Assembly: GCA_963848695.1 (NCBI GenBank)
Contig: CAWKEI010000010.1
Location: 4,905-68,904 of the forward strand
DNA length: 64,000 nucleotides
Origin: an uncultured Acidobacteriota bacterium
GTDB taxonomy: Bacteria; Actinomycetota; Acidimicrobiia; Spongiisociales; ZC4RG35
Direction of reading: 5' to 3'
Shown here one piece after another: positions 3,012 to 50,815 of this stretch. The notes below the pieces were generated by a model that worked only from the letters and a program-made list of their open reading frames with translations, was not told where the DNA came from and made no database searches. Both the position numbers and the translations under genes were made by a program. Position 1 is the stretch's first letter, and every line of letters starts with the position of its first letter.

Positions 3012-3779
3012 TTACGTGTCGGGACGAGCTATATCGAAGGTTTCGCGTGCGGGGGCCCCGGTCGGAGCCGGCGCTCTCCGCCCGCCCGACGCCACCCGAT
3101 AGCCCGCCCAGATCAATGTCACCGCGGCGAGCAGCGACAACGCGAAGGCACTCGACTCGCCGAGGGCGAGACCGGTGCCGCCCGACGCTGCCGCCAGCGT
3201 GCCGGCGAGGATGAGCAGGTTCCCCCAGACGATGCGGCGGTTCTTCTTCCAGAATCGGAAGATCGAGACCACCGACAACACGGCCAGGATCGTGGCGCCC
3301 AATGCCCCCCCGATGATGGCGAACAGCCTCGGCCCGAATCCCGAGGCGAACACGTCATGGGGCACCCCGGTCTCAGGCAGGGGATTGGCGAATGGCACGG
3401 TGGCGGTCAGGGTCGTGGAGATGGCGGTGAAGGCGCCGAGCGCGATGGCCATGACATGACCCGACCGCTTCCCGACGACCAGGAACATCGAGCCCAGGGC
3501 CAGGAACGGGATGTTGAGGATGGCGCCGAATAGATAGAAGATTCGGTACATGGGCCCGGTCCAGCCGACGGTGACTCCCAGGAAGAACGCCCAGGTCGCG
3601 ATCGCGAACATCACCATGCCCGTCCCGTATGCCGCGATGTGGGGACGGGGCCGTCTTCGGTAGTCGAGCCAGAGATCGACGGCGAAGATCGACGCTGCCA
3701 GCGCCGCGACAAGGGCCAGAGCCGCATCCACTCCCGCCAGGCTAGAACGAGGCGGAAGCCCCGGCCGACCGGCGATCAA
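3012..3779 (-). CDS. polytopic membrane protein of unknown function, start overlaps ABC ATPase stop (co-transcribed)
   Basis: 255-aa ORF with ~7 hydrophobic segments. A 4-nt overlap with the upstream ATPase gene suggests translational coupling. Confidence 0.5.
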   Translation of the reverse strand: MIAGRPGLPPRSSLAGVDAALALVAALAASIFAVDLWLDYRRRPRPHIAAYGTGMVMFAIATWAFFLGVTVGWTGPMYRIFYLFGAILNIPFLALGSMFLVVGKRSGHVMAIALGAFTAISTTLTATVPFANPLPETGVPHDVFASGFGPRLFAIIGGALGATILAVLSVVSIFRFWKKNRRIVWGNLLILAGTLAAASGGTGLALGESSAFALSLLAAVTLIWAGYRVASGGRRAPAPTGAPARETFDIARPDT

Positions 3780-4798
3780 GACCGCGAGAAGATGCGGGCG
3801 TCGGTGGCGCGGACCCGGGCCGGCTGACCCACCCGGTAGAGGGGACGTGGGCCGATCCTGGCCCGGACCCGGGTGCCCTCGTGGAGGGCGAGCGTCACCA
3901 ACTGGTCATGACCGAAGAACTCGGACCCGGCCACCACTGCATTCGGCGTCTCGCCGAGAGAGATCTGGACGTTCTCCGGTCTGACAATCACGGACACGGT
4001 CCCATGGAGATCGGTCTCGAAGGCGCCAACCGGGGTGTCGACTCTTCCATTGCGCGCTACTGACTCCAGGACATCGGCATCACCCAGGAACTCAGCCACC
4101 CATTGGTCGGCCGGATTCGAGTAGAGATGGCCGGGGGTGTCGGCCTGCAACACGCGCCCTTCCCTCATCACGGCGACGATGTCGGATGTTGCCAGCGCCT
4201 CCTCCTGGTCGTGAGTGACGAACACTGCCGTGGTGCGTGCCTCGGTGAGGATGGTTCGCAGCTCACGGCGCACTCGGTCACGCAAACTGGCGTCGAGGTT
4301 GGAGAACGGCTCGTCGAGGAGGATCACCTCCGGCTTGGGGGCGAGGGCCCGGGCCAGGGCGACGCGCTGTTGTTGCCCGCCGGATAGCTCGTTCGGCATC
4401 CGGCCCTCCAATCCAGTCAATCCGACCAGTTCCAGAACCTCGGCCACACGTGGCCCTCGGTCGCCTCGGGGCAGCCCATAGGCGATGTTCCCGGCGACGG
4501 TCATGTGGGGGAAGAGGGCGTAGTCCTGGAACACCATTCCCACCCGACGCCGGTCCGGGGGGATGAACTCTCCCGGCCCGAGCACGGTCCTGCCATGGAT
4601 CTCGACCGATCCTCCGGCGGTCTCGAAGCCGGCGATGACCCGTAACGCGGTGGTCTTGCCACACCCCGAAGGCCCGAGGATGGTGACAACACCACCCTCC
4701 CAGACGTCCAGGCTGAAATGGTCCAGGGCCACGGCGTCGCCAAAGGACCTGGTCAGGTCCCGGGCGCGGATGGCGAGCCGGTCAGTCGCTGAGCTCAC
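3776..4798 (-). CDS. ABC transporter ATP-binding protein, FbpC/PotA-like with C-terminal TOBE-like domain (iron(III)-type importer)
   Basis: Walker A GPSGCGKTT, signature LSGGQQQRVALARAL, Walker B ILLDEPFSNLD. 340 aa with a C-terminal extension. Confidence 0.85.
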   Translation of the reverse strand: MSSATDRLAIRARDLTRSFGDAVALDHFSLDVWEGGVVTILGPSGCGKTTALRVIAGFETAGGSVEIHGRTVLGPGEFIPPDRRRVGMVFQDYALFPHMTVAGNIAYGLPRGDRGPRVAEVLELVGLTGLEGRMPNELSGGQQQRVALARALAPKPEVILLDEPFSNLDASLRDRVRRELRTILTEARTTAVFVTHDQEEALATSDIVAVMREGRVLQADTPGHLYSNPADQWVAEFLGDADVLESVARNGRVDTPVGAFETDLHGTVSVIVRPENVQISLGETPNAVVAGSEFFGHDQLVTLALHEGTRVRARIGPRPLYRVGQPARVRATDARIFSRS

Positions 4799-6356
4799 GT
4801 GACATCAGGAGGAAGAGTGGCACGATCGAGACCACGAGGAGCACGAGGCCGGCCGCCGAGGCTCTGGTCACAAAACCCTCGGCGGTCGAGCTCCAGATTC
4901 GGATTGCCAGCGTCTCGAAGCCGTTTGGGCGGAGCAGGAGCGTGGCAGGGAGCTCTTTCATCACGCTGAGAAAGACAAGAGCAGCCCCGGCCAGCAGCCC
5001 GGGCACGGCCAACGGGAGCGTCACCCTCATCAGTGTTGCCATGGCCCCCTTGCCCAGCCCCCGCGATGCATTCTCGAGATCCGGGCTCGCTCTGACCATG
5101 GCGTCCTGGGCCGCCCCTACCGCCTGGGGAAGGAAGATCGCCCCGTAGATGATCACCAGGTAGAGCAGGGTTTGATAGAGAGGCCGGGCCCAGGAGAGGG
5201 CGAAACCGACGGCAGCCACTCCGACGGTGATATGGGGGAGCGAGTAGGCGCCCCACATTGCGGACTCCACCCATCCCGAAAGCCGGCCCGGTCGGCGAGT
5301 GGTCACCATGGCGACCGGGAACGCGAGGATCACGGTGAGGAGAGCGGCGATCACCGCCACCCCCAGAGATCGTCCTGTCTCGGCACCCAGCGACCCGATG
5401 GTCTGGTCCGACGCGACCCCACGCCCGACGGAAACCGCCATCACCAGGAGTGGGATCCCGAGCGTGACCAGGGCGTAGACGGACAGTCCCGAGATCGAGA
5501 GAGCCCGGGGCCATCCGGTGAGGGCGATCAGGGGGCGCGACCGCCGCGGTCGCCGGGAGTGCAGGGCGATCCTGGCGCGATACCGGCGTTCGACCAGGAG
5601 GATCAGGATAGCGAGGATCATCAGGATGAGGGAAAGGGTCGCCGACGGCCTGCGATCGATCTGGCCCCGATACAGGGTGTAGATGGCCCGGGTGAAGGTG
5701 TCATATCGGAGCAGGGAGACAGCCCCGAAGTCCGAGATCGCGTAGAGGCCAACCAGAAGGGCGGAAGAGACGAGGGCGGGCTTCAACTGCGGCACGGTGA
5801 CCGTGCTGAACACCCTCCAGCGGCTCGCCCCGAGACCTGTGGCGGCCTCCTCGGTGGCCGGGTCGATCGCCCGCAACCCGGGGATGAGGGTGAGATGGGC
5901 CAGGGGTGCGGTGAACAACGACAGGACGAGCCACGACCCGACGAAGCCATAGGGCGTGGGCACTTCGACCAACACGCCGGAAGGCCCGGTGGCGGCGATG
6001 AGCGTGAGGGCTGCGACATAGGAGGGGACGACCAGGGGAAGCGCGGCGAGGGTCATCCAGCCTCTACGGAAGGGGAGCCTCACCCTGTTGGTGACCCAGG
6101 CTGTAGCCAATCCGATGGTGACCGCGGTGATCGTGACGGCGATGGACAGCATTGCCGTGTTCAGCAACAACTCGGCCAAACGCGCTGGGGGAATGGCGAG
6201 GGAGGTCCCGCTCCCCATCACCTGGAACAACAGGCTGATGGGGGGTATCAGCGAGGGGAGCAGGGCGATCCCTGCAGCCAGCCACCAGCCCCGACCTCCG
6301 GGATGCCGAACGGGCCGGGCGATAGGGCGCGGCGGGGCGATCGGCCGGATGGTCAA
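4782..6356 (-). CDS. ABC transporter permease, duplicated two-domain type (FbpB/ThiP-like)
   Basis: 524-aa protein with ~12 TM segments and two permease halves. Overlaps the ATPase and SBP genes. Confidence 0.8.
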   Translation of the reverse strand: MTIRPIAPPRPIARPVRHPGGRGWWLAAGIALLPSLIPPISLLFQVMGSGTSLAIPPARLAELLLNTAMLSIAVTITAVTIGLATAWVTNRVRLPFRRGWMTLAALPLVVPSYVAALTLIAATGPSGVLVEVPTPYGFVGSWLVLSLFTAPLAHLTLIPGLRAIDPATEEAATGLGASRWRVFSTVTVPQLKPALVSSALLVGLYAISDFGAVSLLRYDTFTRAIYTLYRGQIDRRPSATLSLILMILAILILLVERRYRARIALHSRRPRRSRPLIALTGWPRALSISGLSVYALVTLGIPLLVMAVSVGRGVASDQTIGSLGAETGRSLGVAVIAALLTVILAFPVAMVTTRRPGRLSGWVESAMWGAYSLPHITVGVAAVGFALSWARPLYQTLLYLVIIYGAIFLPQAVGAAQDAMVRASPDLENASRGLGKGAMATLMRVTLPLAVPGLLAGAALVFLSVMKELPATLLLRPNGFETLAIRIWSSTAEGFVTRASAAGLVLLVVSIVPLFLLMSRELSD

Positions 6357-6357
6357 C

Positions 6358-7362
6358 TCACACCAGGCCCGCCTCGGCCACGAGGCGGGTGGCGAGATCG
6401 AGAACGCCTGCCAGCTCGCCGAGATCGATATCAGGGGAAGCGATCTCGGACAAGGGCGGCACTCCCTCGGGTTGGGGCGTCCCCTCGACCAAGGGATATT
6501 CGAACGTCTCGGTTGCGAAGTAGGCCTGGGCGTCCTCAGCCAGCAGGAAATCGACGAATTCCTGCGCGATATCGGGGTCTTGGGTCGCGGACATCATCCC
6601 GACTCCCGCCGTCATCACCAGTGAGCCGACATCCCCTGCCGGGATGAAGTAGTTCTCGGTGTTCTCGCCCTGGCCTTCTGCTCGGAGACGCAGCAAGTAG
6701 TAGTGATTCACCAGACCTCCGGACAGCTCGCCGGTGTCGGTCGCGTCGACGATCGGAGCGTTTCCGTCGAACTCGACCGGGTCGTTGGCGGCCAGCGCCT
6801 CCAACCATTGACGGGTCCCGTCTTCGCCCCGTTCGAGGATCATCGCCGAGATGAAGGCAAGGAACGAGCCATTGGTCGGAGCCACGCCCAGTTGGCCCGC
6901 CCAAACCGGATCGACCGTGTCATCGATGGTCTGGGGGAGCGGGATGTCCGAGTCGATGTTGTGCGCCACGACCCGGACCCGCCCGGAGGTCCCGATCCAT
7001 TTTCCCTGACCATCCTGGAAACGAGGCTCGACCAGGCCGAGAGTCTGTGAGGGCAATTCCGACATGAGCTCGGCGGCCGCGCCCAGCGAGGCGGGGTCTT
7101 GGGCGAAGAAGATGTCGGCCTCGGTTGTCTCGCCTTCGGCGAGAAGGGTGGCGGCGAGCTCTCCGGAGTCGGCGTATCGGACTTCGACTTCGACACCCGA
7201 AGACGATTCGAAGTCTTCGATCAGCGGAGCCACCAGCTCCTCACTGCGCCCGGAGTAGATGACCAGAGAGTCTTGGGAGCCCCCCTCGCCTGAGCCTCCA
7301 CAGGCCGCCATGAGTGCCGCGGCGACGAGCGCACCGACGATCAACCTCTTCAAGGCCGCCAT
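6358..7362 (-). CDS. ABC transporter substrate-binding lipoprotein, iron(III)/FbpA-AfuA family
   Basis: Signal peptide plus lipobox (LMAAC GGS). VIYSGRSEELV motif typical of ferric-binding proteins. 334 aa. Confidence 0.72.
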   Translation of the reverse strand: MAALKRLIVGALVAAALMAACGGSGEGGSQDSLVIYSGRSEELVAPLIEDFESSSGVEVEVRYADSGELAATLLAEGETTEADIFFAQDPASLGAAAELMSELPSQTLGLVEPRFQDGQGKWIGTSGRVRVVAHNIDSDIPLPQTIDDTVDPVWAGQLGVAPTNGSFLAFISAMILERGEDGTRQWLEALAANDPVEFDGNAPIVDATDTGELSGGLVNHYYLLRLRAEGQGENTENYFIPAGDVGSLVMTAGVGMMSATQDPDIAQEFVDFLLAEDAQAYFATETFEYPLVEGTPQPEGVPPLSEIASPDIDLGELAGVLDLATRLVAEAGLV

Positions 7363-7406
7363 CCTCCAGATCGTTAGCTACCAAACAAATCGAGGAAAAT
7401 CTATTA

Positions 7407-7424
7407 GCACTACGGCCGTAGTGC
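7407..7424. promoter_or_regulatory. 18-bp perfect palindrome GCACTACGGCCGTAGTGC in AT-richer promoter region 45-62 nt upstream of the SBP start; candidate operator
   Basis: Read directly in the sequence. It sits in an unusually low-GC stretch (ccaaacaaatcgaggaaaatctatta...) immediately upstream of the divergent start of the importer operon. Confidence 0.3.
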
Positions 7425-7598
7425 AAAAGGTCGACAGTTTGAAGTCTGCCCATCAGGGGTATCGGCGAAAAGCAGGATCGAGTACTCGTCGGCCATGCGA
7501 TGCCGGGTTCCCAGAGTCCCCCCGCCCGGGCGTCGCATGGCCGACTCCGAAGGGCCTTCGCGATTGATCGGGGCCGCCCCTTTTCTAGGCCGTCACCG

Positions 7599-8279
7599 TC
7601 AAGGACGGAGCCGATTGGTCTCCAGATGTCTGCCCCTTGGGGTGACCGAGCGGCGAGAGCGTCCCCTGTCGTCCAACCAGGACGAGAGTGCCTCGAGAGG
7701 CGATAGACCGTTTTCGTGTTGCCACATCACACGTTCGGTTGGCGAACGCGGGCCGGGTCTGGTTCGAGCGGTGAATATCGTCGGTCCATGACGCCCCATC
7801 ACTCGCTCGGCGAGCTCCGCCTTTCGGGTTTCGCCTGCCTCAACCTCGATGGTGAGGCCGCCAACCGGATGGGCCAGGAGATCTTCACGACGAGGGGGAT
7901 GGGCGGTGGCTGCCATGGCGCTTCCAATCCAACCGGTGAGTGCCCCAACCACGGCGCCCAGCCCGGCGTAGAGCAACCAGTGCCTGCCATCGAGCCAGAC
8001 GATCGAGGCGAGAGCCGTGATCGTCCCCAGCGCCAATGCTCCGGTAGCGGCCGTGATCAATGGATGCTCGAACAGACGGCTGCGGGGGACGGGCAGGGAG
8101 GAGAGGGTCCATGGTCCCAATGGGGCTATGACCGTTGGATGTAGACCGGCCTTCTCCAGGTCGTCCACCACGGCGTTGGCGACCGAGGGGTCGGGATAGG
8201 CCGCGCTGAAGGTGCTGACCTGCTCTTCTTCGGGTGGTGCCTGGGTCGAGCGTTCGGAAAACGGCAGGTGTGACGACAT
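7599..8279 (-). CDS. hypothetical membrane protein
   Basis: 226-aa ORF with a central hydrophobic region. No motif recognised. Confidence 0.35.
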   Translation of the reverse strand: MSSHLPFSERSTQAPPEEEQVSTFSAAYPDPSVANAVVDDLEKAGLHPTVIAPLGPWTLSSLPVPRSRLFEHPLITAATGALALGTITALASIVWLDGRHWLLYAGLGAVVGALTGWIGSAMAATAHPPRREDLLAHPVGGLTIEVEAGETRKAELAERVMGRHGPTIFTARTRPGPRSPTERVMWQHENGLSPLEALSSWLDDRGRSRRSVTPRGRHLETNRLRP

Positions 8280-8306
8280 TTGATCGTTCCTGGATAGAGG
8301 TTGTGA

Positions 8307-8660
8307 CTACCCCTGATCCGACCCGTCGTAACCCCGACGGGCCGCCGCAAGACCCCGTGCCCGAGTCAGACCACGGTGGGCCCAACTATGACTCGGGGGC
8401 GCATCTGACGGGGGAAACGCACCGCGCAGCGTGACCGTCCCCTGGTCGATGTCGATATTCACGGTAGCCATCGGTGCCTCCCACTCATCGGATTTCAACG
8501 ACCGATGAGACGGACCAGCCGAGCCCGACCGCAAGCTGTCCACTGCTTTTGCGAATCGACGGGCCAACTGTCTCCGACGCTTCTTCCCCTGCGAGGGGTC
8601 GAAGAGATAGGCGGCCGAAGCTCCGATCACCGCGCCTCCGATCAGGCTGACACGGTTCAC
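8307..8660 (-). CDS. YtxH-like membrane-anchored small protein (start moved to GTG at ~8660, after the metallothionein stop)
   Basis: The segment LIGGAVIGASAAYLFDPSQGKKRRRQL resembles the YtxH/DUF948 motif. The first 29 codons of the track ORF 8307..8747 overlap the metallothionein ORF out of frame. Confidence 0.3.
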   Translation of the reverse strand: MNRVSLIGGAVIGASAAYLFDPSQGKKRRRQLARRFAKAVDSLRSGSAGPSHRSLKSDEWEAPMATVNIDIDQGTVTLRGAFPPSDAPPSHSWAHRGLTRARGLAAARRGYDGSDQG

Positions 8661-8812
8661 GACGGCCCGGATGCGGGAACCCGGCTCGCACGGCAAGTGG
8701 CGTGGTCGCAGCCACAGAAGCCGCCGGACATCGTGCCCACCTCGCAACTCTCGCTACAGAACTCGCCTTCCTCCATCACCAAGCAGGTGCAGGACTCATG
8801 AGCGCATTCCAT
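8657..8812 (-). CDS. bacterial metallothionein, SmtA/BmtA-like (51 aa, 10 Cys + 2 His)
   Basis: My translation: MECAHESCTCLVMEEGEFCSESCEVGTMSGGFCGCDHATCRASRVPASGPS. The pattern C-A-x3-C-x-C...F-C-S-E-x-C...G-C-x-H-x2-C matches SmtA (KCACEPCLC...YYCSEAC...GCGHTGCNC). GGGAGA RBS lies 5 nt upstream of the ATG at 8812; an alternative ATG is at 8824. Shorter than the track cutoff, so not listed. Confidence 0.55.
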   Translation of the reverse strand: MECAHESCTCLVMEEGEFCSESCEVGTMSGGFCGCDHATCRASRVPASGPS

Positions 8813-8881
8813 CGAATCTCCCATTGTCAGGTGGAAAGTTCATACCCATCAGGAACGTCGGCAAAACCGAAGCGGGCATCC

Positions 8882-9643
8882 TCAGGGCTCCCACACCGCG
8901 CTGGCTTCGATATCGGGGAAGCGGGCCGGCTCGATGCTCGTCAGTGGGGTGACGGTGACGAAGTTCTTGGCGCAGAGGGCGGTGTCGCTCCCCGGATCGG
9001 TCCCCGCAGACGACGACCCGACGACGAATTGGAGCTTTCTGTCCTCGACGTCGGCGTTGGCCACCCGGAAATAGCCGAAGTCGTCCAGATCCGCCCAGTG
9101 GATCCCGTTGACCTCAGAGATAGGGACTCCGGGAACGTTCACATTGAGCACATAAGGGCTCCCGGTGCGACCGAGGAGCCAGCGTGTCGCCGAAACACCG
9201 ACCTCGACTGCGGTGTCCCACTGCCACGGTTCGGACTGGGCGAGGCTCACCGCGATGCCGCGGCTGCGAAAGGTCCGCGCGGTGAGCGCGGCGCCAACCG
9301 TTCCCGAATGGATGATCGAGTGCCCGACGTTCATCCCTGCGTTCACTCCGGAAACCACCAGGTCGGGAAAGCGGCCGAACGCCCCGAGTGCTGCCGCCAT
9401 CACGGCCAGGCCCGGAGGTCCGGCGATGGTGTACGCCGTGATCCCGCCGAGATCGACTGTGGTGAGGTCCACCCCTCTGACCGGGTCGAAGCCACCGATT
9501 CCGGTGCCACTGCCGGACATATCGCTCGCCGGGGCAGCCACCACGACGTCGAATTCCTCTGCCAGCCTCGCGGCGAGCTTCCGGAGCCCCGGGGAATCGA
9601 TGCCATCGTCGTTGGTGACGATGACCCGGGGAAGGTCCTTCAT
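8882..9643 (-). CDS. surE: 5'/3'-nucleotidase SurE
   Basis: N-terminal VIVTNDDGIDSPGL motif, 253 aa. Confidence 0.9.
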   Translation of the reverse strand: MKDLPRVIVTNDDGIDSPGLRKLAARLAEEFDVVVAAPASDMSGSGTGIGGFDPVRGVDLTTVDLGGITAYTIAGPPGLAVMAAALGAFGRFPDLVVSGVNAGMNVGHSIIHSGTVGAALTARTFRSRGIAVSLAQSEPWQWDTAVEVGVSATRWLLGRTGSPYVLNVNVPGVPISEVNGIHWADLDDFGYFRVANADVEDRKLQFVVGSSSAGTDPGSDTALCAKNFVTVTPLTSIEPARFPDIEASAVWEP

Positions 9644-10588
9644 TGTGGCGTCCCGGCCAGGATCTCGATCTCTACCCGTTCGGCCAGTCGGGGGATCAGG
9701 TCGTCCGATGCGCTTCCCAGCCCGTGCCGGGTCACATTGGCAGCGCCCGCCCCCGAGGCCAGCCGCAGTGAATCCTCAGCCCCGATGCGCCGCCTCATCC
9801 CTGCGGCCAGGGCCGCAGTCATCGAGTCGCCGGCCCCCCGGTAGTCGGCGGGCTCCAGGTCGGGCCCGGTCACCCGGTAGGTCACATCATCCATCAGCGC
9901 CAGAGTCGGGCGAGTGCCCCGCGAGATGACCACATTCCTCGCTCCGGCCCGGATGAGTCGGTGTAGCTCGGCCAACGCGCTCGGGCTCCTCCTCGTCCGC
10001 CAGCAGGCCGTCTTCGATCAGGTCCTCGTCGCTGACCTTGAGCAGGTCGAGGTCGCCGCCTTCCAAGAAGGCATCGAGCTCGCGGCCGTGCAGGTCGCCC
10101 ACCACCCGGGCATCTGCCGCGGCCAGATCGTGACCGAGGCGACGATAGGTTGCGACCGGGACGATCTCTGTGCTCTGGCCCGTGATGACAACCACCTCTG
10201 AGCTGAGGGCATGGTCGAGGATCCTCCCGTAGGCGTCGTCCAGCTCGTGACGGGCCAGGCTGGGCATGGTCGCTTCCGCTATGGCGCTCCTGTCGCCCGA
10301 CCGCCGGTCCTGGACGATGGCCGGAGAGCTCTCCTGTACCTCCACCGGGCTCAGGTCGATTCCCCACTGGCTGATCAGGCTGCGAAGCACCCCGCCCGTC
10401 TCGCCTCCCACCGGGCCACAGAGCAACGGATTCTCTTTCAAATGTCGGAGCATTCGCGCCACCCAGAAGCCCTGGCCGCCGGGGTGGATGTGCACATCGG
10501 GTGGGCCGTCTTCCCGTCCTCTCTCGATGGTCACCGTGAGGCTGAGATGAGGGGCGAAAACGGTGATCCTGTGCCGGTCTTCACCCAT
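9640..10588 (-). pseudogene. PfkB-family sugar kinase (1-phosphofructokinase/ribokinase-like) split by a frameshift near 9960-9980
   Basis: The N-terminal 2/3 (9887..10588) and the C-terminal 1/3 with the GAGDSM anion-hole motif (9640..9975) are in different frames and overlap by ~90 nt. Combined length ~315 aa equals an intact PfkB kinase. Confidence 0.55.
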
Positions 10589-48337: not shown

Positions 48338-48396
48338 TCCCCCATTCTGGCGCGGAGATCTCCGCGCCAAAACGGTTGCCTCTACACTGCCCGGCC

Positions 48397-48951
48397 ATGG
48401 ATCTCATCTGGATCGTCGTGATCGTCGTCCTGGCGATCCTGTTATTCGCCTTCATCGGCATCTACAACGGGCTAGTCCAATCACGGAACCGGGTCGACAA
48501 CTCCTGGGCCCAGGTCGACGTGCAGCTCAAGCGTCGTTACGACCTGATCCCCAATCTCGTCGAGACGGTCAAGGGATACGCCTCTCACGAGCGGGAGACC
48601 TTCGAGCGAGTGACCCAGGCGAGGAGTGCGGCTCAGTCGGCCACCGGCCCGGCCGAGCAAGCCCAGGCCGAAGGCTTTCTGACCCAGGCCCTCCGTCAGC
48701 TGTTTGCGGTCGCCGAGGCATACCCGGAGCTGAGGGCGACGGAGAACTTCCAGAACCTGCAGAACGAGCTGGCCGAGACTGAGAACAAGATCGCTGTCTC
48801 CCGTCAGATCTACAACGACACCGTGCTGACTTACAACAACAAGGTGCAGCAGATCCCCACCAACATCGTGGCTTCGATGACCGGGTTCGACATCCGGGAG
48901 TTCTTCGAGGCCGGGCCCGAGGCGGTAGAGGCCCCGACCGTCGATTTCTGA
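48397..48951 (+). CDS. LemA family membrane protein
   Basis: N-terminal TM helix then NGLVQSRNRVDNSWAQVDVQLKRRYDLIPNLVETVKGYA. Confidence 0.75.
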   Translation: MDLIWIVVIVVLAILLFAFIGIYNGLVQSRNRVDNSWAQVDVQLKRRYDLIPNLVETVKGYASHERETFERVTQARSAAQSATGPAEQAQAEGFLTQALRQLFAVAEAYPELRATENFQNLQNELAETENKIAVSRQIYNDTVLTYNNKVQQIPTNIVASMTGFDIREFFEAGPEAVEAPTVDF

Positions 48952-48952
48952 G

Positions 48953-50815
48953 TTGCGCAAGCTCGCCCGGGCTCTGATCGTCTTCCTGCTGGTCGCGGCC
49001 CCGGCGACGGCGGTCTTCGCCAAGTCGTTCTGGATGAGCAACGCCGATGTCGACATCGTCGTGAACGACGACGGATCGCTGTCGGTCACAGAGAGATTGA
49101 CGTTCGACTTCGATGGGGATTTCGCCGGCGCTTATCGAGACATCCCCCTCCGACCGGGCGAGACCATCTCAGGCGTCACCGTCAGTGACGAGTCGGTCAC
49201 CTACGAGCCGGGGGCATGTACCGAGCTCGGCTGCTCGTCGCCTCCGGGCTCGTTTGGAGTGGAGGAGCAGAGCGATCTGGTCCGGATCGTGTGGCATCAC
49301 AGCTCGTTCAGCGAGCAGCGGACCTTCGAGATCAGCTACGTGATGACTGGTCTCACCATTGCCCACGACGACGTCGTCGACGTGAATGTCCAGGTGTGGG
49401 GCGACCAGTGGGCGGTTGGCCTCCAGGAGCTCGCCGCCAGGATGACCCTGCCCGCTGGGGCGGAGCCCGGCGAGGTCCGTGTCTACGGCCATCCCTACGG
49501 AGTCGACGGGGAGACCTCGCTCGGGGCCGACCAGATAACCCCGTCTCTGGTGGCGAGCAACGTGCCCGCCTATCAATGGGTCGAATTGCGCGCGGTATTC
49601 CCCAGGTCTGTGCTCACATCGACCGAGGGCGCAACAGTCGTCCCCGGAGAAGGTCTGCCCGGCATCATCGCCGAGGAAGACGAATTCGCCCGGGAGGCGT
49701 CCGACGCCACCACCGCGGCCCGGTCGGGGCTGATCTGGGGCTCGGTCCTGGCCCTGGGGCTGTCCGCGGGCCTCGGGGGCCTCGTGTACCTCCGGTACGG
49801 AAAGGAGCCGCGGGTCGACTACGACCGGGAGTACGAACAGGAACCGCCGACCGAGTTGAAACCGGCGGAAGTCGGGGCCCTCCTCACCCAGGGGGCGGTG
49901 AGCGAGAAGGAGTTCACCGCCACCATGTTCGATCTGATCCGGCAGGGCGCGATCAAGGCCACCCCGTCGCAGGTCGAGCGGAGCACCTGGGGCGGGCTTC
50001 GCGAAGAGACGATCACCGACCTGGTGCTCGAGCTCACCGACAAGGACACCGGCTACCGGGACTACGAGCAGTCGGTGCTTTCGGTCGTCGGCCGCGTCCT
50101 CGACGAAGGGCCAAGACCGCTTCATGAGTTCAAGGAGCGAATCCGTGACGATGCTTCGGAGAACGCATCGAGCTACCAGAGCTTCAGGAGCAAGGTGTCC
50201 TCGGCGATCAAGCGAGGCGGTCTGCTCGACGAGACCGGCAACGGCGTGGCGTGGTTCGTGGCCATCGCGGTCGGGCTCCTCGTCTTCGGTGCGATCGTGT
50301 TCCTGCCCGACCTGCTCAGACGCCGTCCCGGCGGCCAGACCATGGCCATCTTCATCGTGATCGGGATGGTGATCGGCGCCCTCGCTCTCTACATACTCCT
50401 GTTCTTCCGCCGGGTGCGGGTCCGACGGACCAAGGAGGGGGCACTCGAGGCCGAACGCTGGGACGCGTTCAGGCGCTATCTGACCGATTTCTCCCGGCTC
50501 GAGGAAGCCCCACCGATCTCACTCGCGCTCTGGGACAAATTCCTGATCTACGCCATCGTGTTCGGGGTGGCGGAGGAGGTGTTGCAACAGGCGCGGATCC
50601 ACGCCCCACCCGAGTTGGAACAGACCTCGTCGATCTATTGGTTCGGGAACTACGGATATTCGGGAGGCCACACCGAGAATGCCTTTGCCGGTCTGAACTC
50701 TGCTCTCACAGGTGCTTTCAGCCCGCCTTCGTCGAGCGGTGGTGGCGGCGGGTTCTCCGGCGGAGGGGGAGGCGGTGGCGGTGGAGGAGGCGGCGGGGGT
50801 GGAGGCGCCTGGTAG
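48953..50815 (+). CDS. DUF2207 domain membrane protein with C-terminal poly-glycine tail (LemA partner)
   Basis: Signal peptide, large extracytoplasmic domain, 3 TM helices near residues 420-480. Ends in SSGGGGGFSGGGGGGGGGGGGGGGGAW. Adjacent to LemA with a 1-nt gap. Confidence 0.65.
   Translation: MRKLARALIVFLLVAAPATAVFAKSFWMSNADVDIVVNDDGSLSVTERLTFDFDGDFAGAYRDIPLRPGETISGVTVSDESVTYEPGACTELGCSSPPGSFGVEEQSDLVRIVWHHSSFSEQRTFEISYVMTGLTIAHDDVVDVNVQVWGDQWAVGLQELAARMTLPAGAEPGEVRVYGHPYGVDGETSLGADQITPSLVASNVPAYQWVELRAVFPRSVLTSTEGATVVPGEGLPGIIAEEDEFAREASDATTAARSGLIWGSVLALGLSAGLGGLVYLRYGKEPRVDYDREYEQEPPTELKPAEVGALLTQGAVSEKEFTATMFDLIRQGAIKATPSQVERSTWGGLREETITDLVLELTDKDTGYRDYEQSVLSVVGRVLDEGPRPLHEFKERIRDDASENASSYQSFRSKVSSAIKRGGLLDETGNGVAWFVAIAVGLLVFGAIVFLPDLLRRRPGGQTMAIFIVIGMVIGALALYILLFFRRVRVRRTKEGALEAERWDAFRRYLTDFSRLEEAPPISLALWDKFLIYAIVFGVAEEVLQQARIHAPPELEQTSSIYWFGNYGYSGGHTENAFAGLNSALTGAFSPPSSSGGGGGFSGGGGGGGGGGGGGGGGAW

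Follow-up and report, generated by a model that had tools for sequence, protein, structure and literature searches.

A probable divergent SmtA/BmtA-type metallothionein, with a candidate general-stress promoter, encoded downstream of surE in an uncultured bacterium

Bacterial metallothioneins have so far been recognized in few lineages, namely cyanobacteria, pseudomonads and mycobacteria, and were represented in a 2026 paper by cyanobacterial, Pseudomonas, Mycobacterium and Salmonella examples only (PMC13578184). The physiological role of these proteins beyond zinc detoxification is debated. SmtA of Synechococcus elongatus PCC 7942 (Zn4Cys9His2; PDB entry 1JJD) and the cyanobacterial BmtAs belong to Pfam family PF02069 (Metallothio_Pro), and SmtA is under SmtB or Zur control; the fold of the family is a GATA/treble-clef-like zinc finger with a beta-hairpin and a helix. 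In Mycobacterium tuberculosis the copper metallothionein MymT binds Cu(I), and its regulation responds to copper. Many bmtA genes lie without a nearby smtB, and one cyanobacterial bmtA adjoins a CsbD-like general stress gene (PMC3323870). PflQ2 MT of Pseudomonas binds Zn3 or Cd4 and lacks site C of SmtA (PMC10612145); Pseudomonas metallothionein is expressed in stationary phase, aids long-term survival of starvation and is dispensable for metal resistance (PMC7387436). Here, a small cysteine-rich open reading frame (ORF) was analyzed in 64,000 nt of contig CAWKEI010000010.1 (assembly GCA_963848695.1, positions 4,905 to 68,904 of the forward strand; hereafter the window), from an uncultured bacterium filed as Acidobacteriota and placed by GTDB in the Acidimicrobiia. 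The ORF lies on the minus strand downstream of surE, and the locus was judged, at a probability of about 65% on sequence evidence, to encode a metallothionein of 51 residues that belongs to a divergent and mostly unnamed SmtA/BmtA branch.

The stop-free minus-strand frame spans 8657..8824 and gives a 55-residue product, MGDSMECAHESCTCLVMEEGEFCSESCEVGTMSGGFCGCDHATCRASRVPASGPS, as proposed in the initial annotation. The coding sequence favored here is 8657..8812 (minus strand; 51 residues plus stop), with the product MECAHESCTCLVMEEGEFCSESCEVGTMSGGFCGCDHATCRASRVPASGPS and the putative ligands C3, H5, C8, C10, C19, C23, C33, C35, H37 and C40. Ligand-type residues were counted as eight Cys and two His (10 potential ligands), which corrects the 10 Cys and two His reported initially. 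Near the N-terminus the motif reads C-A-H-x-x-C-x-C (C-x-x-x-x-C-x-C) and exceeds the spacing first described by one residue; the FCSExC and C-x-H-x-x-C blocks of that description were present. Stop-free 40-residue windows with at least eight Cys occurred at two places only (69,741 windows scanned over the 64-kb window in six frames), one being this ORF and the other a non-coding stretch antisense to a LemA-like gene. The latter (48834-49085, minus strand, at ~48.9 kb; LemA-like gene 48376..48951, plus strand) gave no match to the metallothionein family (E = 0.82) and was rejected as spurious.

Translation likely starts at the second ATG (8812), so that the protein begins MECAHE. This start was preferred because a ribosome-binding site, GGGAG (8818..8822, minus strand), lies 5 nt upstream of it and because homologues begin MEC(A/G)HE in all cases but one (P0003, called with a different 10-residue extension). 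All 16 loci have GGAGG, GGGAG or GGAG in the corresponding position, and no Shine-Dalgarno motif was found before ATG 8824. The four extra codons of the first-ATG form (MGDS; 8813..8824, minus strand) occur only in the mechanical 55-residue ORF, contain the GGGAG that serves ATG 8812, and are probably non-coding 5' untranslated sequence.

Comparative sequence data established the ORF as a genuine protein-coding gene under strong purifying selection, in this frame only. Related loci were recovered by a word-indexed search of 5.8 billion proteins, which returned eight close relatives of 51-94 residues, and by a scan of GTDB representative genomes, which returned 12 loci in Acidimicrobiia-type metagenome-assembled genomes (MAGs). 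These loci are collinear with the window (92.7% identity over 12 kb for locus L004; 77-81% over ~7-17 kb for the others). The ratio of nonsynonymous to synonymous polymorphism (pN/pS) was pooled for 14 distinct orthologous syntenic sequences, of which the first 44 codons were used. Variable sites fell at the three codon positions in the proportion 7/11/37, and pN/pS was 0.114 in the metallothionein frame. The two other frames gave 5.5 and 1.55, the lower value belonging to that of a 146-residue mechanical ORF (8307..8747) that covers the 3' half of the small ORF. Conservation of the small ORF and its Cys pattern in relatives, which had been put forward initially as a check, was borne out: no Cys or His position changed across the 14 orthologues, while the Cys codons themselves alternate between TGC and TGT. 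The expectation that automated annotation would miss the gene held in one respect and failed in another. All eight close relatives had been called as genes, in JGI, ENA and Logan data, but were left, where named, as 'hypothetical protein'.

Membership of the SmtA/BmtA family was examined with profiles of increasing breadth. PF02069 was the sole Pfam match to the peptide (17.8 bits, E = 0.0039, profile positions 3-50 of 51 for the 55-residue form; 15.7 bits for the 51-residue form). The same model was matched at E<=1 by 9 of 9 close members, and at E<=0.01 by 11 of 60 family members (best E = 1.6e-5 in both sets). Queried exhaustively with the close-clade profile (HMMER), a set of 1.84 billion representatives yielded 57 proteins at E<=1e-3, of which 55 were 45-109 residues long, and a profile search of a larger collection raised the family to at least 475 proteins (sequence clusters). 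Of those among the 475 that carry a name, nearly all are 'hypothetical protein'; three (JGI) are named 'metallothionein', and almost none carries a precomputed PF02069 match; the few organism names among them are Bryobacteraceae, Vicinamibacterales and Rhodanobacter.

When the wide-family profile was run against the whole PDB, the top match was SmtA (1JJD; E = 0.0016, 21.5 bits), and three Pseudomonas metallothionein chains were also matched (E 0.13-2.6). Alignment by hhalign gave 95.8% for the family against SmtA. Against a canonical set of 11 sequences (SmtA and ten PF02069-annotated BmtAs) the wide family gave 96.8% (E = 3e-10) and the close clade alone 95.2% (E = 2.7e-8). SmtA scored 22.5 bits against the family hidden Markov model (HMM), while the maximum of 20,000 composition-matched SmtA shuffles was 13.2 bits. 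As none of the 20,000 shuffles reached the real score, the similarity is not due to Cys-rich composition, and at the level of sequence profiles the peptide was shown to be homologous to SmtA/BmtA beyond such composition. The SmtA/BmtA-type assignment of the initial annotation is upheld by these results, for a divergent rather than a canonical member. Matches of the family profile to CDGSH iron-sulfur and G-protein-coupled receptor entries (E>=0.03, partial profile coverage) were treated as noise.

Ligand anatomy was taken from the hhalign alignment to canonical BmtAs, and the site-level comparison was confined to site A and to the variability of site C. The peptide is similar in size to SmtA (51 residues against 56) and shares with the BmtAs the blocks K/M-C-A-x-x-x-C-x-C-x-V, aromatic-C-S-E-x-C and G-C-x-H-x-x-C. 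SmtA ligands are retained at 8 of 11 positions: Cys9, Cys14, Cys16, Cys32, Cys36, Cys47, His49 and Cys52 correspond to C3, C8, C10, C19, C23, C35, H37 and C40. Site A of SmtA, which we take to consist of Cys9, Cys14, Cys32 and Cys36, is complete here as C3, C8, C19 and C23, all four invariant in a 60-sequence family alignment, with C3 kept at >=90% in a 99-sequence alignment. Cys16, Cys47, His49 and Cys52 are the further ligands in common. Also kept are Ala10, Ser33 and Gly46 of SmtA (A4, S20 and G34) and the aromatic position that precedes the third Cys of site A (Tyr31 of SmtA, F18 here), which is an invariant F in the close clade and has an F/Y consensus in the wide family.

The remaining ligands differ. 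Cys11 of SmtA is replaced by His5; His40 is lost, with Thr27 at a position that is variable in the family; and Cys54 has no counterpart. An extra invariant Cys33, without equivalent in SmtA, lies two residues before the Cys47 equivalent. The peptide accordingly has eight Cys and two His where SmtA has nine Cys and two His ligands, and the full set of other cluster ligands (Cys11, Cys16, His40, Cys47, His49, Cys52 and Cys54), invariant in canonical BmtAs, is not present. Ala37 of SmtA, on which Tyr31 packs, is not conserved either (E24 here, varying across the family), and the beta-hairpin loop from the second to the third site-A Cys is seven residues shorter (C-x8-C against C-x15-C). In the 60 family sequences C3, C8, C10, C19, C23, C33, C35, H37 and C40 never vary, and H5 and S20 are kept at >=90%; in the 99, C3, H5 and C10 are kept at >=90%. 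BmtAs have site A as a core that is conserved throughout, and the region of the lost His is the least conserved in them (PMC3323870). With two of the 11 SmtA ligands missing and one changed to His, the alignment places the peptide in a divergent branch and not among canonical BmtAs.

In the proposed protein, C3, C8, C19 and C23 would form a tetrahedral, zinc-finger-like site that nucleates folding, and H5, C10, C33, C35, H37 and C40 would complete a small metal-thiolate/imidazole cluster. This predicted cluster would most likely hold about three Zn(II) or Cd(II), compared with four in SmtA, because 10 ligands replace 11 and the positions of His40 and Cys54 are gone. The altered ligand set (N-terminal Cys-to-His exchange, loss of the labile site-C His, shorter hairpin) offers bioinorganic chemistry a natural variant in which the effect of ligand changes on cluster size and zinc release can be examined. 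The Pseudomonas metallothioneins (PflQ2 MT and PmtA; 6GRV, 6GV6, 6GV7) are likewise BmtA variants without the SmtA site C and with fewer Zn. They differ in a sequence similarity weaker than that to SmtA, a long disordered C-terminal tail, another C-terminal ligand pattern, and a Gram-negative host with different sigma-factor control.

The spacer between surE and the metallothionein-like gene contains a putative sigma-B/sigma-F-type promoter, GTTTTG-N14-GGGTAT (8842..8867, minus strand; -35 at 8867-8862, -10 at 8847-8842), with 29 nt from the end of the -10 hexamer to the metallothionein ATG. When the spacers of 14 loci were aligned, CGGTTTTG and GGG.A stood out as the two invariant blocks, with variable sequence between them. 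The element GTTTTG-N14-GGG(T/A)A(A/T) was present in 16 of 16 loci, 26-34 nt 5' of the ATG, with the hexamers kept while the spacer varies. Across both strands of the window, GTTT-N14-17-GGGWAW was matched twice against 0.40 expected. The Mycobacterium smegmatis SigF consensus is GTTT-N14-19-GGGTA, with many GTTT-N16-GGGTA and GTTT-N16-GGGAA examples, and the SigF regulon includes a SurE gene; the element found here equals the GTTT-N16-GGGTA form (PMC4694148). The Bacillus subtilis SigB consensus is GTTTAA-N12-14-GGG(A/T)A(A/T), which is also recognized by Streptomyces SigB homologues (PMC8346170), and a Bacillales consensus is KTTTW-N12-17-GGGWAW (PMC9847131). The element fits all three. From consensus match and conservation, this predicted general-stress promoter appears to drive the metallothionein gene.

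Metal-responsive control was sought in the same region. Adjacent smtB/ArsR genes or Zur/SmtB operators are typical of smtA, although not universal in BmtAs, and neither was found. The initial statement that no ArsR/SmtB-type regulator is adjacent was confirmed: no ArsR/SmtB-family gene was found within ~10 kb in the syntenic locus L001 or among the window ORFs scanned. No operator-like inverted repeat was found in 8780-8900, which includes the 69-nt spacer, and a scan of 7400-9800 returned no sigma-70 promoter and no intrinsic terminator. In lacking an adjacent smtB the gene resembles many bmtA genes (PMC3323870); it differs from smtA in having, in place of SmtB or Zur control, a putative general-stress-type promoter.

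The gene immediately downstream encodes a YtxH-like small protein (8307..8660, minus strand; 117 residues from GTG 8660). Its start and the metallothionein stop share a GTGA overlap (8657..8660, minus strand; stop TGA 8659-8657, GTG 8660-8658). The initial annotation had suspected that the neighbor was over-extended, and this proved to be so on comparative grounds: the 146-residue ORF is read as an over-extension, with the gene starting at GTG 8660 and not at TTG 8747, because the 117-residue extent from GTG is conserved, the upstream starts and stops are not, and the public gene calls of locus L003 agree. The gene has 117 residues from GTG in 12 of 16 loci, whereas the position of the upstream in-frame stop ranges between -16 and -81 codons, with alternative starts that differ between loci. 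L003 carries calls for a 57-residue gene and a 117-residue gene with a 4-nt overlap, the latter product carrying a precomputed hit marked 'YtxH (weak)'. PF12732 (YtxH) matched the 146-residue ORF at 32.0 bits (E = 1.7e-7; residues 35-72 aligned to positions 4-41 of the 71 in the profile), under the cut-off of 37.5 bits; the putatively co-transcribed gene is on this score YtxH-like with respect to the B. subtilis general stress protein YtxH. TCGTGAA around the overlap was kept in 15 of 16 loci, with ATGA instead in L015, and the conserved GTGA overlap suggests translational coupling of the metallothionein and YtxH-like genes. The corrected gene model of this neighbor is a practical gain of the analysis.

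One 94-residue homologue (P0007, from a 33-kb ENA contig) is a fused metallothionein/YtxH-like product, whose junction, CQGVGCGAGHRPIVRRLSL, reads as the usual C-terminal tail shifted into the +1 frame. Since the junction matches a +1 frameshift in the tail, the fusion is probably a single-base indel, either an assembly error or a rare natural variant. If it were a natural fusion, it would hint at a functional link between the metallothionein and the YtxH-like protein.

In the model favored here, the metallothionein gene would have a sigma-B/sigma-F-type general-stress promoter of its own within the surE spacer, would not be under an SmtB/ArsR metal sensor, and would form a bicistronic unit with the gene for the YtxH-like stress protein, whose GTG start lies over the metallothionein stop. 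The protein is proposed to buffer or store zinc, or to protect thiols, in stress, stationary phase or dormancy, a role that would be nearer to that of the stationary-phase Pseudomonas metallothionein than to that of zinc-induced SmtA. The proposed general-stress transcription unit agrees with the stationary-phase expression of Pseudomonas metallothionein, which is tied to survival, and with the occurrence of a bmtA beside a CsbD-like gene. The conserved candidate promoter and the YtxH-like coupling together offer a testable link between a metallothionein and stress or dormancy physiology.

A wider reading is put forward tentatively, as somewhat less probable than not. The peptide may belong to a large, unrecognized sister branch of SmtA/BmtA (at least 475 clusters, in soil Acidimicrobiia, Acidobacteriota and Proteobacteria) with a short hairpin, a Cys8His2 composition and the signature C-A-H-x2-C-x-C ... 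F/Y-C-S-x2-C ... C-x-C-x-H-x2-C. Its cluster would be re-wired, probably with three metals and an N-terminal His ligand, and in Acidimicrobiia the gene would belong to a SigB/SigF-type regulon and be coupled to a YtxH-like protein. If so, the sister-branch protein would be a zinc buffer for stress or dormancy and not a metal-induced detoxifier. A literature search returned nothing specific on such a variant or on metallothioneins in Acidimicrobiia or Acidobacteria, and no paper was found that describes a short-hairpin Cys8His2 branch; the branch appears widespread and effectively unnamed. The locus shows a distinct SmtA-related branch to be common in uncultured soil bacteria, one that escapes naming by Pfam and NCBIfam. 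The value of the locus lies in annotation and in a family-level lead, and not in a new kind of system.

Several results weigh against assignment of the peptide to a stress-regulated SmtA/BmtA branch. The HMM search against PF02069 proposed by the initial annotation gave a match far under the gathering threshold (17.8 against 33 bits), short of curated family membership, and no NCBIfam model matched the peptide. Single-sequence and close-clade profile searches of the PDB recovered SmtA (1JJD) only at E = 7.1; because these narrower queries gave non-significant matches, the PDB search was informative only with the wide-family profile. Their only other matches, scorpion toxins and cyclotides, were non-significant and were discarded. 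His40, Cys54 and Ala37 of SmtA are not conserved and the hairpin is shorter, as described above. The promoter assignment is a consensus match made from sequence, and distant family members in other phyla lack a SigB-type motif; their neighbors are mutually unrelated, and no metal-related genes were found among them. That the peptide binds metal, with what stoichiometry and with which preference, is predicted from sequence.

Other accounts of the peptide were weighed, of which a single-zinc protein is unlikely; it would be either an 'SmtA-like zinc finger' or a structural zinc-ribbon mini-protein and would serve another protein, such as the YtxH-like one, as partner or regulator. The four site-A Cys are the only residues with an unambiguous match to a defined site of SmtA, two SmtA cluster ligands are lost, and site A of BmtA folds with a single Zn (PMC3323870); the GTGA coupling and the 94-residue fusion in P0007 also hint at a link with the YtxH-like protein. 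Against this, H5, C10, C33, C35, H37 and C40 are invariant or close to it in 60-99 sequences from several phyla, and a one-metal finger would have no need of six further Cys/His. Most family members also have no YtxH neighbor, and the fusion in P0007 is explained by the +1 frameshift in the tail. That the ORF is no functional gene at all, being a chance frame in GC-rich DNA or a leader ORF that controls the downstream gene, with the 146-residue ORF as the real product, is very improbable. Although the ORF is short, overlaps a longer ORF and has a stop overlapping the next start, its pN/pS of 0.114 contrasts with 1.55 in the 146-residue frame, which is interrupted by stops in most orthologues. 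Conservation of the peptide family moreover extends over several phyla in which the downstream gene does not accompany it, and the ORF has its own ribosome-binding site and candidate promoter. The chance-frame version is refuted by these comparative sequence data.

Likewise improbable is a metallothionein that binds Cu(I) and resembles mycobacterial MymT in function, or else a redox or Fe-S mini-protein, in place of a Zn/Cd protein. MymT is a small actinobacterial Cys/His peptide whose N-terminal C-x-H-x-x-C-x-C is also found here as CAHESCTC, and thiolate-rich peptides generally bind Cu(I). For the Fe-S variant, the family profile weakly matched the CDGSH iron-sulfur domain (E = 0.043 and 0.62), but these matches are non-significant and cover part of the profile only. 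Homology to MymT was rejected: hhalign gave a non-significant 19.6%, in what is a soft test, against 96% for SmtA, only the CxHxxCxC motif is shared, and MymT has no counterpart of the FCSExC and CxCxHxxC blocks. The zinc-finger site of BmtA needs a four-coordinate ion, which disfavors Cu(I) (PMC3323870), and no CsoR, CopA or Fe-S assembly genes were found nearby. A zinc- or cadmium-binding metallothionein of a divergent SmtA/BmtA branch is the reading retained.

The surE gene (5'/3'-nucleotidase SurE; 8882..9643, minus strand; PF01975, E = 1.6e-40) is the upstream neighbor, 58-69 nt before the small ORF, in agreement with the initial placement of the small ORF downstream of surE. The PfkB-SurE-metallothionein synteny was found in L001, L002 and 8-9 further loci, and the gene order in L001 was nuo operon, phosphodiesterase, PfkB, SurE, metallothionein, 226-residue protein and an ATP-binding cassette (ABC) transporter (SBP_bac_11-type binding protein, permease, ATPase). 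Directly after the metallothionein/YtxH-like pair of the window lies the gene for this conserved 226-residue hypothetical protein with hydrophobic segments (7599..8279, minus strand), which had no Pfam or NCBIfam match, was called at the same place in L001 and is syntenic in all related loci.

A second, weaker sigma-B/F-like element, GTTACG-N14-GGGTAG (8307..8332, minus strand), overlaps the YtxH-like stop and lies ~27 nt 5' of the 226-residue gene. In 13 related loci the corresponding element is GTTTCG-N14-GGGTAA (GTTTGG in L015), ~24 nt before the 226-residue gene and at ~+486 to +569 relative to the metallothionein ATG; in the copies of the window and of L004 each hexamer carries a single mismatch. 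The whole cluster may be a general-stress island. The other exact GTTT-N14-17-GGGWAW match in the window, GTTTGAAGTCTGCCCATCAGGGGTAT (7437-7462, plus strand), is also present in L004 and lies in the spacer between the ABC binding-protein gene and the 226-residue gene. Pointing antisense to the 226-residue gene, it may drive a small plus-strand ORF or an antisense RNA, or may be a chance match.

On the 3' side of the cluster, a syntenic ABC importer (3776-7362, minus strand) consists of an SBP_bac_11/SBP_bac_6-type binding protein, a 524-residue double permease and an ATPase with TOBE_2, and from this domain set it looks like an iron(III)-type transporter. No Rfam family was found over the whole window. 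On the 5' side of surE, a pfkB-family kinase (9640-10588, minus strand) is split between overlapping ORFs at 9887..10588 and 9640..9975, each with a PfkB match, where L004 and other loci have one intact ORF of ~315 residues. Judged against those intact copies, the split is a frameshift near 9890-10015, reflecting either a pseudogene or a sequencing error. Taxonomic labels of the collinear loci L004-L015 (77-93% identical) conflict, four being labeled 'Acidimicrobiia' and eight 'uncultured Acidobacteriota' (Microflora Danica MAGs). One set of labels is probably wrong, and the SigF/SigB-type promoters fit Actinomycetota better.

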